From Alphaproteobacteria bacterium (GTDB lineage: Bacteria; Pseudomonadota; Alphaproteobacteria; RF32; CAG-239), in NCBI GenBank assembly GCA_017471705.1, contig JAFUSH010000012.1, positions 1 through 57,156 on the forward strand: DNA of 57,156 nucleotides. Reading direction: 5' to 3'. Below the pieces are notes generated by a model, which was not told the origin of the DNA, did no database searches, and saw only the letters and a list, made by a program, of their open reading frames with translations. Shown here piece by piece: positions 45,678 through 49,082 of the stretch (position 1 is the first letter of the stretch; each line of letters opens with the position of its first letter). The position numbers and the translations under genes are program-made.

Positions 45678-46250
45678 GTGCTTAACTTTGATAATGAAAA
45701 TAATAACAATTTTTCGGCGGCTCGCAAACGAAAACCGCAGAAAAAAATTACTCCCGCACGTTTGAAAAACATCGGTCTTTACTATCTCAAACGATTTGAA
45801 TCATCGGTGGAAAATCTGCGAACCGTATTACATCGGCGCGCAGATGCATACGCGCGTGAAAATCCGGATTGGAAAAAAGAAGAGGCTTATCAATGGATTG
45901 AAGAAATATTGCAAGAATTTGAGCGCTTGCATTATTTGGACGATACGCGTTATGCCGAAATTAAAATCCGCGGATATCTGAACGCCGGAAAACCGGCGCG
46001 CTATATTGAAACTAAATTAAAAGCAAAAGGGGTAAGTACTGATAAAATTTCCCAAATATTGGAAGAACAGGAATACAACCCGTTTGATATGGCGCTGAAA
46101 TTGGCAAAACGCAAAAAAATCGGACCTTATCGACCGGAGGAAATCAGACGCGAATCCAAACAAAAAGATATGGCAACCCTAATCCGCGCCGGATTTGATT
46201 ATGATGTGGTCTGCGATGTTTTGAATTATGAAATTGATGACGATAATTAA
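45678..46250 (+). CDS. recX: RecX family regulator
   Basis: YYLKRFESS..LR.VL, LDDTRYA, L.AKGV, LIRAGF. Confidence 0.85.
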   Translation: MLNFDNENNNNFSAARKRKPQKKITPARLKNIGLYYLKRFESSVENLRTVLHRRADAYARENPDWKKEEAYQWIEEILQEFERLHYLDDTRYAEIKIRGYLNAGKPARYIETKLKAKGVSTDKISQILEEQEYNPFDMALKLAKRKKIGPYRPEEIRRESKQKDMATLIRAGFDYDVVCDVLNYEIDDDN

Positions 46251-46489
46251 CCGTAAACTCTTTTAGCTCGGAATTTATTTTTTTTCAAACGGCTGCACTT
46301 ATCTGAACGAAAGGGAAAACGATTTTTTGTAATCCTTTTAATATATTTAATCACTTTGTTAAATTCATCTTCGGTCATAAATTGAGCAGCCATTCGCAAA
46401 TCGTATTCGGCAACACTTACTTTTTCATAATAATCAATGGTATGGTGTATATTGATGTTACCGTCAAAATCAAGCATATCCTCAGACAT
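46247..46489 (-). CDS. 80-aa hypothetical protein downstream of C4-like RNA
   Basis: AGGGAG RBS; acidic N-half and basic C-half; overlaps the recX stop. Confidence 0.6.
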   Translation of the reverse strand: MSEDMLDFDGNINIHHTIDYYEKVSVAEYDLRMAAQFMTEDEFNKVIKYIKRITKNRFPFRSDKCSRLKKNKFRAKRVYG

Positions 46490-46529
46490 TTTTCAATACT
46501 CCCTAAAAAATAAAGCCGCTTGATGAGAG

Positions 46530-46606
46530 CGACCGGAAGTTGAGAACTATACCTAAATAGTGCGGCATATTGACTGTAAACGACTTATTTTGCCGCCTTC
46601 CGGTCG
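46530..46606 (-). ncRNA. C4/CI-like antisense RNA core
   Basis: Closing stem CGACCGGAAG/CTTCCGGTCG, GCGGCA/TGCCGC arm, ACTAT-TTAGGT-ATAGT hairpin and TCTCAA bulge; complementary to upstream TGAGAAC and ACCTAA. Confidence 0.75.
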
Positions 46607-46655
46607 TATTATTAACCAGAAAGCGCGCAAAAGTTTCGTCTTTGCACATAAGACG

Positions 46656-46679
46656 TTAGGTAAAAGGTTCTCACACCTT
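46656..46679 (-). promoter_or_regulatory. C4-type antisense target site (a1/b1-like)
   Basis: Minus strand AAGGT-GTGAGA-ACCTT hairpin, then TT and ACCTAA. Confidence 0.7.
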
Positions 46680-46706
46680 AAGCAAGTTATCATCTTGCCT
46701 AAAGAA

Positions 46707-46735
46707 AAAATACAAAATTTGCGGCGTAAAGTCAA
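46707..46735 (-). promoter_or_regulatory. Putative promoter of the C4-like leader
   Basis: TTGACT-17 bp-TATTTT on the minus strand. Confidence 0.45.
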
Positions 46736-46768
46736 GTTCTGTTTAGCTAAATATCTTTAAATTTTTAA

Positions 46769-46797
46769 TTGCCATAATCACAAAATGATATTATAGT
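46769..46797 (+). promoter_or_regulatory. Putative promoter of the restriction-modification operon
   Basis: TTGCCA-17 bp-TATAGT, 20 nt before the MTase start. Confidence 0.55.
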
Positions 46798-46817
46798 GTT
46801 TTCATAGGGAATTTACT

Positions 46818-47756
46818 ATGAACGCATATCCTGTCTTAAAAAATGAAGTATTTGAAGAAATAAATGCCAAACCAGTATTAAAATGGGCTGGTGGTAAAGG
46901 TATGCTTTTACCTAAAATTACAGAACATCTTCCTACTAAATTGAAATTTGGAGCAATAAAACGATACATTGAGCCTTTTATTGGTGGTGGAGCTGTATTT
47001 TTTGATATTGCAAACAATTATAATTTTGAGGATGCTTACCTCTTTGATATAAATCCCGAATTAGTTATTTTATACAATGTTATCAAATATGATGTAGATG
47101 ATTTGATTACAGAACTCTTTGAATTGCAGCATAGATATAATATTTCCGAAGACAAAACAAATTTTTACTATGCTGTTCGTGATGAATATAATTTGTTCGA
47201 TAAACAGATAGATGCAAATAACTATACTAAGGATTTTGTTAGAAGAGCTGCATTAACTGTATGTCTTAATCGGACTTGTTTTAATGGATTATATCGTGTT
47301 AATTCTAAAGGGTTATTTAATGTTCCTGTTGGAAAGTATAAAAATCCACGAATTTTAGATGAAGATAATTTAAGAGAAGTGGCTAAAGCTTTGCAATATG
47401 CCACAATTATACAGACAGATTTTGCAAAAGTCTTGAACTATGTGAATAAAGATAGCTTCGTTTACTATGATCCACCATATCGCCCAATTAATGCAAGTTC
47501 ATTTAATTCATATGCAGTGGGTGATTTTGATGATAATGAACAAAAACGTCTTCAATGTGTTTTTGTTAAAGCTGATAAAGTCGGAGCTTTGCAGATGTTA
47601 AGCAATTCAGATCCGACCAATTATAATCCCGATGACAACTTTTTTGATGATTTGTATGCCAAATATAATATTCACCGTATTTGGGCAAAACGTATGATAA
47701 ATTCTAATCCTAATGGTCGAGATGGTGTGAGAGAACTTTTAATAACGAATTATTGA
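46818..47756 (+). CDS. Dam/DpnM-like alpha-class N6-adenine DNA methyltransferase
   Basis: [46 protein letters not shown]. Confidence 0.93.
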
Positions 47757-47757
47757 T

Positions 47758-48528
47758 ATGAAGAAAAGCTATCGTTTATATTGTGATGATTGTATAGAAC
47801 GGTTAAAGGAAATCCCAGAAAATACCTTTGATATGATTTTTGCAGATCCACCATATATGCTCTCAAATGGAGGAATTTCTTGCCAAAATGGCAAAGTCGT
47901 TTCGGTAAATAAGGGTGATTGGGATAAAAGTAAAGGGTTTGAAGAAGATTTTGAATTTCATAAAAAATGGCTTACTGAGTGTAAAAGAGTATTAAAACGC
48001 AATGGAACCTTATGGGTATCTGGAACATATCACAGTATTTATTCTTGTGGATTTGCTATACAATTATTGGGTTATCACATATTAAATGACATTACTTGGT
48101 TTAAGCCGAATGCCAGTCCCAATATGTCTTGTCGTTATTTTACAGCCAGTCACGAAACATTAATTTGGGCGAGAAAAGATAAAAAAGCTAAGCATACATT
48201 TAATTATGATTTAATGAAAAATGGTAATTTCCCGAAAGATTTTATAAAAAAACAAGATACACAAATGCGAAGTGTTTGGGCGATAGGTACTCCACCAAAA
48301 AAAGAAAAAATATTCGGTAAGCACCCGACTCAAAAGCCATTAGACCTTTTGGAACGTATAATTTTAGCTTGTACAAATGAAGATGATTTAATTTTAGACC
48401 CTTTTATGGGGAGTGGAACTACGGGAGTCGCAGCCGTCAAGTTAAACCGCAAATTTGTAGGTATTGAAAAAGAGTCAGATTTTGTTGCATTGGCAGAAAA
48501 AAGAATCTATGATGCCTTTATAAGTTAA
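47758..48528 (+). CDS. DpnA-like beta-class N6/N4 DNA methyltransferase
   Basis: FADPPY precedes HPTQKP and [11 protein letters not shown]. Confidence 0.93.
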
Positions 48529-48542
48529 TTGGAGAAGCAGAA

Positions 48543-49082
48543 ATGAAAGAAAATGGAATTGGGGGAGCAAATACAAAAACAGGATTAGTTTTTGAAGGAA
48601 AAACCGATTTGCAAACTTTTCTATGTGGTCAGAAAGGATATTCTTGTGAAACAGATCCCCGTGGTTGGATTTTAGTTAAATACAACAAAGAAGAAGTTGC
48701 TTCAATTTTCAAAAAAACAGCATTATATAAGTTCCTTAACTACCGAGGTGTTGAATGGAAAACCATTTTATCTAAGAAACTATTACCGGACGATTCCATT
48801 TATGTTGTGTGTAACAATACATTTTTTGTTATAGAATGTAAGTTTCAAAAAGTGGCAGGATCTGTTGATGAAAAGTTACAAACCTGTGACTTTAAAAAGA
48901 AACAATATAAAAAGCTTTTATCTCAATTGAATATGGAAGTAGAATATATTTACTTATTAAGTGATTGGTTTAAGCAGAAACAATATATGGACGTCCTTGA
49001 TTACATTAATAGCGTAGGTTGTTCATATTACTTCAATTATATTCCATTAACGAAGTTTGGATTACCAGTTCCAAGAAAGTAA
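48543..49082 (+). CDS. Putative type II restriction endonuclease, PD-(D/E)XK fold
   Basis: LPDD...IECK catalytic pattern, GSVDEK; third gene of the MTase operon. Confidence 0.75.
   Translation: MKENGIGGANTKTGLVFEGKTDLQTFLCGQKGYSCETDPRGWILVKYNKEEVASIFKKTALYKFLNYRGVEWKTILSKKLLPDDSIYVVCNNTFFVIECKFQKVAGSVDEKLQTCDFKKKQYKKLLSQLNMEVEYIYLLSDWFKQKQYMDVLDYINSVGCSYYFNYIPLTKFGLPVPRK

Follow-up and report, generated by a model that had tools for sequence, protein, structure and literature searches.

C4-type RNAs are known as immunity repressors of bacteriophages. In phage P4, the CI RNA has a box that complements sites on either side of its own gene, one upstream and one downstream, and it brings about premature termination of its own transcript. 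Here, an RNA module of comparable build is described from contig JAFUSH010000012.1 of an Alphaproteobacteria bacterium (assembly GCA_017471705.1). Positions 1 to 57,156 of the contig are called the window, and element coordinates follow the window numbering. The module is read on the minus strand from 46745 to 46240 and includes a small open reading frame (ORF) of 80 amino acids (aa). The explanation preferred here is a self-contained attenuator leader of the C4/sRNA-Xcc1 kind with a private feedback in trans. As a whole this explanation is an even call; its attenuator core is rather likely, and the trans step, drawn from analogy, falls slightly short of even. The argument starts from direct observation of the anatomy, of covariation in two folds, of the exclusivity of their helices, of boxes specific to their own module and of the variety of genes (cargo) placed behind the module.

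C4 RNAs have three helices, with a box a' in a hairpin loop, a box b' in a single strand and the boxes a1 and b1 upstream, and small differences between boxes give them separate specificities (PMC5320573). The name c4-a1b1 motif is that of Weinberg et al. (2010; PMC2864571). In Acinetobacter baumannii, the Group 1 C4-like small RNAs (sRNAs) occur as many chromosomal copies with a variable a' loop, and are apparently processed from longer transcripts (PMC5320573). In Xylella, tandem multi-copy arrays carry the labels sRNA-Xcc1, C4 and isrK on neighbouring copies (PMC12189769), and for this reason the three are treated here as one loose superfamily. From a single promoter, IsrK of the Salmonella prophage Gifsy-1 is made both as a short RNA that stops at a terminator and as an mRNA that reads through it. 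Expression depends on alternative structures, and the long form is targeted in trans by the short RNA (PMC4825925). Bartonella henselae has nine RNAs of 194-203 nt (Brt1-9 / Trp1-9), which have a 3' terminator with little read-through and lie directly upstream of genes without an intervening promoter; a cis switch combined with a trans sRNA was proposed by the authors (PMC5387305). Multi-copy chromosomal C4-like RNAs are therefore already known from A. baumannii and Xylella, and a similar layout from Brt. These chromosomal look-alikes (A. baumannii Group 1, Xylella sXF and possibly Bartonella Brt) are known without a target or mechanism. For the module described here, comparative data alone yield a testable target, its own leader, and a testable mechanism, in which the RNA scaffold competes with a terminator that gates the gene behind it.

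On the minus strand, a cassette from 46735 to 46487 comprises, in order, a promoter, a leader with boxes, a three-helix RNA, an intrinsic terminator and a ribosome-binding site (RBS), followed by the 80-aa ORF (Table 1). The original prediction, made from the letters of the window, had named the promoter, the boxes, a CGTCTT/AAGACG hairpin, the three-way RNA, the RBS and the ORF, and all of these are present. It overlooked the intrinsic terminator between the RNA and the ORF, the 5' hairpin H0 and a second, mutually exclusive set of helices. Transcription of the module is predicted to start near 46700. Across an alignment of 32 family sequences (A2), the -10 hexamer never varies in its second base, A, or its sixth, T, and conservation of the -35 TT reaches at least 90%. 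A pyrimidine-rich strand, CGCTTTCTGGTT, lies between stem B and the three-helix RNA, and the first bases of the terminator, GGTC, double as the last bases of the P1 3' strand. The unpaired bases of the junction (GGC-GGCAAAATA ... AATATG-CGCACTAT) are nearly invariant in A2. Furthermore, a 221-nt stretch folds at z = -5.8, with none of 200 shuffles as good, and its minimum free energy (MFE) fold includes stem C.

Two mutually exclusive folds can be drawn from this anatomy, and both are kept by evolution. The closed fold combines b1:b', a1:a', stem A, stem C and the full terminator. The open fold combines Hb, stem B and P1-P2-P3, and its P1 uses the first three bases of the terminator stem. On A2, the open-fold helices are 97.6% paired with 17 pairs changing on both sides, which none of 500 shuffles reaches (slid controls were 35-46% paired), and the closed-fold helices are 94.0% paired, again with 17 pairs changing on both sides. 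A second alignment (A4) contains 20 distinct copies, made up of a class-wide set and the divergent copies of the own genome. P1, which stood outside the model to which A4 was fitted, is 100% paired in A2 and 98.7% paired in A4, with 6 of 9 pairs compensatory in the latter. The terminator stem is 99.4% paired in A2 and 97.4% in A4 (6/6 pairs compensatory), stem A 85% and 97% (5/5), and stem C 91.9% in A2, with its 12-bp part 92.2% paired in A4 (8/12). The helices are thus conserved and exclusive, one of them is an intrinsic terminator before a gene, and bases are common to stem C and P1 as well as to P1 and the lower terminator, which is the arrangement of a transcription attenuator. Covariation ties the 5' bases of P1 to both of their alternative partners, a pattern that marks a switch or a precursor/mature pair.

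The leader strand of stem C (A2 columns 142-151) occurs in two conserved versions, the fully pairing CTTTCTGGTC and CCTGAAAGTC. The second version, in about 9 of the 32 copies, leaves a 3x3 GAA/GGA internal loop.

Table 1. Positions of the promoter, RNA elements and ORF of the module in the window; pairing percentages and pair counts are from alignment A2 (32 homologues).
Feature	Position	Strand	Description
Promoter	46707..46735	-	-35 TTGACT (46735-46730), 17-nt spacer, -10 TATTTT (46712-46707); sigma-70-type, predicted by consensus scan
5' hairpin H0	46680..46700	-	AGGCAAG / CTTGCTT; 95% paired, 6/7 pairs change on both sides
Hairpin Hb	46664..46679	-	AAGGT (46679-46675) with ACCTT (46668-46664); 99.4% paired, 3/5 pairs compensatory
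Box b1	46673-46667	-	TGAGAAC; in loop and 3' arm of Hb
Box a1	46656..46661	-	ACCTAA; single-stranded, adjoins stem A; exact complement of P3 loop
Stem A	46637..46655	-	CGTCT (46655-46651) with AGACG (46641-46637); inside the CGTCTT/AAGACG hairpin of the original prediction (46655-46637)
Stem B	46625..46647	-	GTGCAAAG (46647-46640) with CTTTTGCGC (46633-46625); excludes stem A; 93% paired
Stem C (anti-P1 helix)	46588..46632	-	leader strand TTTTGCGCGCTTTCTGGTT (46632-46614) with GACCGGAAGGCGGCAAAA (46605-46588), the 5' strands of P1 and P2
Three-way-junction RNA	46531..46605	-	C4/sRNA-Xcc1-like; helices P1, P2 and P3
P1	46531..46605	-	GACCGGAAG (46605-46597) with CTTCCGGTC (46539-46531); closing stem
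P2	46564..46594	-	hairpin of the three-way junction
P3	46546..46561	-	loop a' TTAGGT (46556-46551), exact complement of a1
Box b'	46541..46547	-	GTTCTCA; joint 3' of P3, exact complement of b1
Intrinsic terminator	46505..46534	-	stem GGTCGCT/AGCGGCT (46534-46514), T run to 46505; terminator scan
RBS	46499..46504	-	AGGGAG; precedes the 80-aa ORF
80-aa ORF	46247..46489	-	from the ORF list; member of a small-protein family

The boxes are specific to the module that carries them. In A2, every cell of the b1:b' helix is paired (100%, 32/32), and both sides change in 4 of its 7 pairs; one of these pairs is AU in 14 sequences, UA in 10, GC in 6 and CG in 2, with zero mismatches. In the distant copies of A4, pairing of this helix stands at 99.3%, with compensatory change in 5 of 7 pairs. 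Box a1 varies between copies in sequence and in length and always matches its own loop, the a1:a' helix ranging over 5-11 bp. As the a boxes vary in length, the match between leader and RNA was scored by duplex energy. Cognate duplexes in the family set have a mean of -17.1 kcal/mol (sd 1.3) against -7.2 (sd 3.3) for non-cognate ones, and 29 of 32 leaders pair best with their own RNA. The distant set gives -17.3 against -6.3 kcal/mol, with the own RNA best in 19 of 20. Thus, the two pairings that the original prediction found intact in the window are kept in all homologues by compensatory change. Six modules of the own genome were compared in a 6x6 matrix and are mutually orthogonal (diagonal -14.8 to -18.4 kcal/mol, off-diagonal -2.0 to -12.4); the closest cross pair has b in common and a different. 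Taken with the z-score of the fold, the covariation among homologues and the cognate duplex energies place the box pairing and the fold far beyond chance. The boxes can be read as an orthogonal address code.

Two A2 loci (L010 and L016) precede orthologous PEGA-lipoprotein genes in two genomes and are nearly identical in promoter and H0 hairpin. They differ in both boxes and in stems A and B, each exchange being fully compensated, so the address is swappable while the cargo stays.

The same module is found upstream of about 50 different genes of many kinds, a result that does not sustain the original emphasis on a tiny ORF as the point of the element. In most of these copies the first ORF lies ~5-40 nt after the T run and has an RBS. 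Such a gap leaves no space for a promoter of its own, and the cargo gene would therefore be expressible by read-through only. When 49 downstream proteins were compared with Pfam, 20 had families and 29 did not. The families comprise outer-membrane beta-barrels (4), PEGA lipoproteins (3), glycosyltransferases (4), a hexapeptide transferase, PLD-like nucleases (2), XRE regulators (2), an N6 DNA methylase fusion, an Mrr-helicase restriction enzyme, a resolvase-like protein, a methyltransferase and DUF805. Many of the 29 family-less proteins look lipoprotein- or prepilin-like by eye. A gene set of this kind is the sort that host-adapted bacteria vary. The module stands before many different surface and accessory genes and is probably a gene-specific RNA switch.

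The mechanism proposed for this switch is as follows. The module promoter would give a transcript of ~190 nt that normally ends at the intrinsic terminator. In the closed fold, b1 and a1 would pair with b' and a', the leader strand CGCTTTCTGGT would pair with the 5' strand of P1 (stem C) and the full terminator would form; this would be the OFF state, from which a short RNA is released. In the open fold, P1 would take the first bases of the terminator stem and act as an antiterminator, allowing read-through into the cargo gene. The short transcript may be processed to a free three-way-junction RNA, as P1/P7 C4, P4 CI and IsrK suggest by analogy. This free RNA would pair in trans, by a' and b', with a1 and b1 of new transcripts of its own locus only, in competition with the cis lock, so that each gene would have a private feedback loop. 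Energy models lean slightly to derepression as the outcome of this loop and phage precedents lean to repression. Maturation and feedback in trans are modelled on C4 and CI (PMC5320573), on IsrK (PMC4825925) and on the layout of Brt (PMC5387305).

Comparison with these described systems shows both likeness and difference. The C4/CI architecture claimed by the original prediction stands for helices P1 to P3, a' in the P3 loop, b' in the adjoining strand and a1/b1 upstream, as in C4 of phages P1 and P7 (RF01695). It does not stand in other respects: the module has no covariance match to C4, no a2/b2 at the downstream RBS and no phage context. C4 is further marked by release from a precursor through RNase P cleavage at the 5' end of P1 and by an antirepressor or icd gene downstream. 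In contrast to C4, the module has a terminator overlapping P1 and a conserved anti-P1 helix, which give it the layout of an attenuator, and its cargo is cellular and diverse. P4 CI differs in its satellite-phage context, and the module has the upstream site only; the two are likened by description alone. The best Rfam match is sRNA-Xcc1, which spans the whole three-way junction and is also matched by two divergent modules of the same genome; however, sRNA-Xcc1 is known, in the accounts available, from integron cassettes, plasmids and phages, and the module scores below its gathering threshold.

IsrK resembles the module in layout (promoter, terminator, then RBS and ORF), and a short RNA and a read-through mRNA are predicted here as well. 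However, the IsrK target lies downstream, in orf45, and is translational, whereas the boxes of the module lie upstream of the RNA and the competition with a terminator is conserved. Translational control could also come from pairing of the P1 3' strand (CUUCC) with the Shine-Dalgarno (SD) sequence. This pairing is present in the fold of the window copy, but in only 9 of 32 MFE folds, one of which is not at the SD, and SD control was therefore dismissed as a property of the modules at large. The A. baumannii Group 1 RNAs share multiple chromosomal copies and a conserved scaffold with a variable a' loop; those RNAs, however, match Rfam C4, and a self-complementary leader, a terminator overlap and cargo are undescribed in the parts of that report drawn on here. 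Like Brt, the module is a multi-copy leader in an alphaproteobacterium, with ~190 nt from start to T run, a 3' terminator and at least six copies, and two modules in the present set precede XRE regulators as well. Brt RNAs were nevertheless reported as genus-specific and always before XRE genes (PMC5387305), and the two layouts are likened by description only. In the literature on C4, sRNA-Xcc1, IsrK and Brt, supplements apart, no description was found of this lineage, of self-addressed covarying boxes, of an anti-P1/terminator overlap or of diverse cargo; the supplement of Weinberg et al. (2010), which lay outside the search, may detail c4-a1b1 further.

The balance between the two folds was studied by folding the primary transcripts. 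Their MFE folds contain cis b1:b' in 32/32 sequences, stem C in 27/32, the terminator in 31/32 and P1 in 0/32. Without box pairing, the terminator state is favoured by a mean of 2.5 kcal/mol and P1 is favoured in 10/32. With TTTTGCAC held in stem B, the mean turns to 1.2 kcal/mol in favour of the P1 state, which is then the better one in 19/32. In these models the two states are near iso-energetic, differing by ~1-3 kcal/mol on average. Since the cis box pairing is worth about -17 kcal/mol and the states are otherwise close, the pairing looks like a lock on the terminating fold, and this lock may be loosened by free RNA that competes for the boxes.

Several points weigh against an attenuator with feedback in trans. 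Blocking a1 and b1 in silico brought P1 into the MFE fold of just 3 of the 32 sequences, so that thermodynamics alone fail to show a trans competitor switching the leader; a simple model in which the trans RNA flips the switch was rejected on this count. In addition, a1 adjoins stem A, and box pairing could therefore strengthen or weaken the terminator path equally well. Covarying hypervariable boxes are equally expected of a purely cis long-range helix, and the plainly cis H0 varies as much. The A2 loci were the best-scoring ones and are mutually related, hence non-independent, and A4 was fitted to the closed structure, on which the support for that fold in distant copies depends. Transcription, termination, processing and trans action are all predictions from sequence. 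Finally, the Rfam C4 model named by the original prediction (RF01695; gathering score 45 bits) has no match at E <= 10, either in window 46200-46850 or in the whole genome. Only sRNA-Xcc1 (RF02221) matches, over 46605-46523 and model positions 1-87, at 34.3 bits (E 3.6e-4), below its gathering score of 53. Two divergent modules of the own genome score 28.1 and 24.4 bits with RF02221, again below 53, and sub-threshold RF02221 matches occur in control genomes too. The window RNA is thus an outlying relative of the C4/isrK/sRNA-Xcc1 superfamily by architecture and a weak score, and a non-member by threshold.

The first alternative is a purely cis attenuator or riboswitch-like leader, in which the boxes would form ordinary long-range helices of the OFF fold and no free trans-acting RNA would matter. 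The change to the three-way junction would then be driven by a protein, by a small ligand, for instance a second messenger, by temperature or by the speed of transcription. This alternative is possible and on the unlikely side. Two exclusive folds with a terminator overlap are the exact topology of an attenuator, the blocked boxes flip so few folds, and H0 shows that cis helices can vary equally. The nearly invariant unpaired bases of the junction are also what ligand- or protein-binding pockets have. No known riboswitch family in Rfam matched the window. The cargo, with its pilin-like and outer-membrane proteins, lipoproteins and glycosyltransferases, resembles the regulons of second-messenger riboswitches. 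For a similar layout, a riboswitch-like mechanism was proposed by the Brt authors (PMC5387305). However, the anatomy is that of C4-type RNAs, whose trans antisense action is established (PMC5320573), and a length range of 5-11 bp for a1:a' would be unusual for an aptamer helix. The mutual orthogonality of the six own-genome modules is likewise unneeded in cis, although that sample is too small to prove selection.

The second alternative is a conventional trans sRNA that would reach other mRNAs through a' or b' alone, with the leader boxes masking it until processing and the downstream gene incidental. It is clearly improbable. The sRNA-Xcc1 RNA is called trans-acting in the title of Chen (2011), targets elsewhere have been proposed for the A. 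baumannii C4-like RNA and for Brt1 (PMC5320573; PMC5387305), and the closed fold hides both boxes in 32/32 primary transcripts. For the four close copies, both genome strands were scanned for an exact b1 7-mer with, at most 24 nt further on, any 6-mer complement of the P3 loop. The matches were the own leader, a few AT-rich chance sites and, trivially, the RNA gene read on its antisense strand. No second bipartite target (a2/b2) was found genome-wide for the four RNAs with these exact seeds, to which partial or single-box targets are invisible. Between the terminator and the start codon of the window copy, nothing is complementary to the RNA boxes. With no a2/b2 over the RBS, the anatomy does not point to C4-style gating by RBS blocking; what stands at that place is a terminator with an antiterminator stem competing against it. 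Moreover, cargo lies within ~5-40 nt in most copies, with an RBS and no promoter, which argues that the module is its leader, and the overlap of terminator and P1 is conserved.

Action on phages is a far weaker candidate. The original prediction had suggested a decoy immunity RNA, and a relic of C4/CI or a titrator of incoming phage transcripts would have a C4/CI-like architecture, an idea also raised by the A. baumannii authors for their own C4-like RNAs (PMC5320573). This reading is very improbable and gained no support, as the matching target of each RNA is its own leader and the modules are scattered over chromosomal sites before cellular genes. The part of the window between 29.5 and 57 kb has housekeeping and other genes (KsgA, RF1, HisRS, RodZ, PtsP, ApaG, Hsp33, RecX, ParE, S2, EF-Ts), family-less ORFs and restriction-modification genes. 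No phage genes were found in this region or within ~16 kb either side of the module, in agreement with the original observation that none is nearby. By blastn, the module matched nothing among 50,697 phage records or in a plasmid collection, and the exact conserved pattern had 0 matches in IMG/VR viral contigs; a phage or plasmid origin was rejected on these grounds.

The 80-aa ORF belongs to a small-protein family. Called an orphan in the original prediction, it has a profile that is matched by 34 representative clusters. Paralogues follow the modules on contigs C36 and C7 of the own genome (46% identity, E 5e-21; 28% identity, E 1e-5), so that small ORFs of one family stand behind three of the four close modules. 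Among 121 genomes of the bacterial family, the protein family has 12 places in 7 genomes; 7 of these places have a same-strand module immediately upstream (five matches strong, two weak). The protein model (pLDDT 82.6) has two short strands, two helices and a basic tail. No family was found in Pfam, NCBIfam or PHROG, and a search of proteins clustered at 90% returned only the ORF itself. Fold searches gave a best Foldseek E of 1.2, a best VIA-align Z of 3.5 over a two-helix hairpin and nothing usable in the Atlas. That the RNA is the antitoxin of a toxic 80-aa protein, which it would keep silent, is hardly credible: the link of modules to small ORFs of one family and a basic-tailed protein with no known fold speak for it, but the genes behind most modules are ordinary ones (outer-membrane proteins, PEGA lipoproteins, glycosyltransferases, XRE regulators, restriction enzymes), no RNA box matches the RBS or coding start of the ORF, and Pfam, NCBIfam and PHROGs, the databases searched (PADLOC not among them), give nothing for it. 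Coupling to a small ORF is not obligate, given that 20 of 49 cargo proteins have ordinary Pfam families and the small-ORF family follows some modules only.

Members of this protein family (46247-46489 on the minus strand and P0002-P0035) have ~75-100 aa, recurrent N-terminal MSED and DG.V motifs, a nearly invariant Tyr and Glu, a KYI.R.T motif and a basic tail. One protein of 1713 aa matches the family profile in 8 stretches.

A genome-wide count of similar leaders gives at least six modules with diverse downstream ORFs in the own genome (1.82 Mb, 89 contigs). Four close copies lie on contigs C62, C36, C2 and C7 and were found by DNA search and nhmmer; they score 162, 150, 131 and 128 bits with R1, a covariance model built here (168 positions, 40 pairs). 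Two divergent modules (C7:73638-73711 and C19:16474-16564) came from the RF02221 search and score 33.9 and 21.2 bits with R1. The genome-wide RF02221 search omitted the window copy despite its 34.3 bits in cmscan, as the first-pass filter of that search loses members. DNA matches were found in 120/201 genomes of the bacterial family and in 20/23 genera, often as several copies, with three candidates scored per genome. Across the class, with one genome per family, 14/151 genomes are R1-positive: the own genome, one more of the same family, and 12 in 12/149 other families. Most of these genomes measure 0.9-2.5 Mb, and they hold up to 7 copies. The exact conserved pattern occurs in 91 stretches of a species-representative genome collection, and all 80 titles among the pattern matches listed are metagenome-assembled genomes (MAGs) of uncultured Alphaproteobacteria type from gut or rumen. 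The nine sequencing runs that contain the stretch are all DNA gut metagenomes.

This RNA family is missed by current Rfam models, and R1 recovers the module across the class. If the preferred reading, an attenuator leader with private feedback in trans, is true, the module would be a portable, programmable and gene-specific RNA switch that is readdressed by a swap of ~15 bases. Such a switch would be widespread before envelope and defence genes in uncultured gut and rumen Alphaproteobacteria, and would offer a mechanism for unexplained sRNA families in pathogens. A further possibility is more speculative and rather doubtful: each module may be an RNA-only private switch whose released RNA knows its own leader alone by a two-box address and moves it between the terminating and read-through folds, so that surface or accessory genes (for outer-membrane or pilin-like proteins, lipoproteins, glycosyltransferases or restriction enzymes) would flip ON and OFF singly and pass their state on through the RNA pool, with Bartonella Brt as perhaps one instance. 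If true, this would amount to heritable phase variation of contingency genes, independent of DNA sequence, in small-genome, host-associated Alphaproteobacteria.

The two divergent own-genome modules were also inspected by eye. These loci (L124 and L125; G000:C7:73638-73800 and G000:C19:16474-16680, both on the minus strand) have the same layout, each with its own b1/b' and a1/a'. The one on C7 is followed by a 75-aa ORF that looks like a helix-turn-helix (HTH) regulator by eye and has no Pfam family. Modules also occur in tandem. Locus L139 (1216-1647, minus strand) has two complete modules with different boxes ~140 nt apart and no ORF between them, and locus L151 (1750-2187, minus strand) has two successive modules upstream of a small-ORF homologue; such tandems could give two-input control.

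In the window, the module is divergent from a restriction-modification cassette (46818-49082, plus strand), as the original prediction had stated, and the two promoters lie within a common intergenic region of 82 bp. The cassette encodes two methylases, one of the Dam-type D12 class and one of the N6_N4 class resembling CcrM, and a short PD-(D/E)XK ORF, which we take to be a DpnII-like layout. Elsewhere in the window, an ORF of 1881 aa (30528-36170, plus strand) has no Pfam family at E <= 1e-5. The only Rfam match in the window at gathering thresholds is an rpsB leader (RF01815; 53036-53130, plus strand; 42.9 bits), an ordinary autoregulatory leader directly before the S2 gene (53135-53947).

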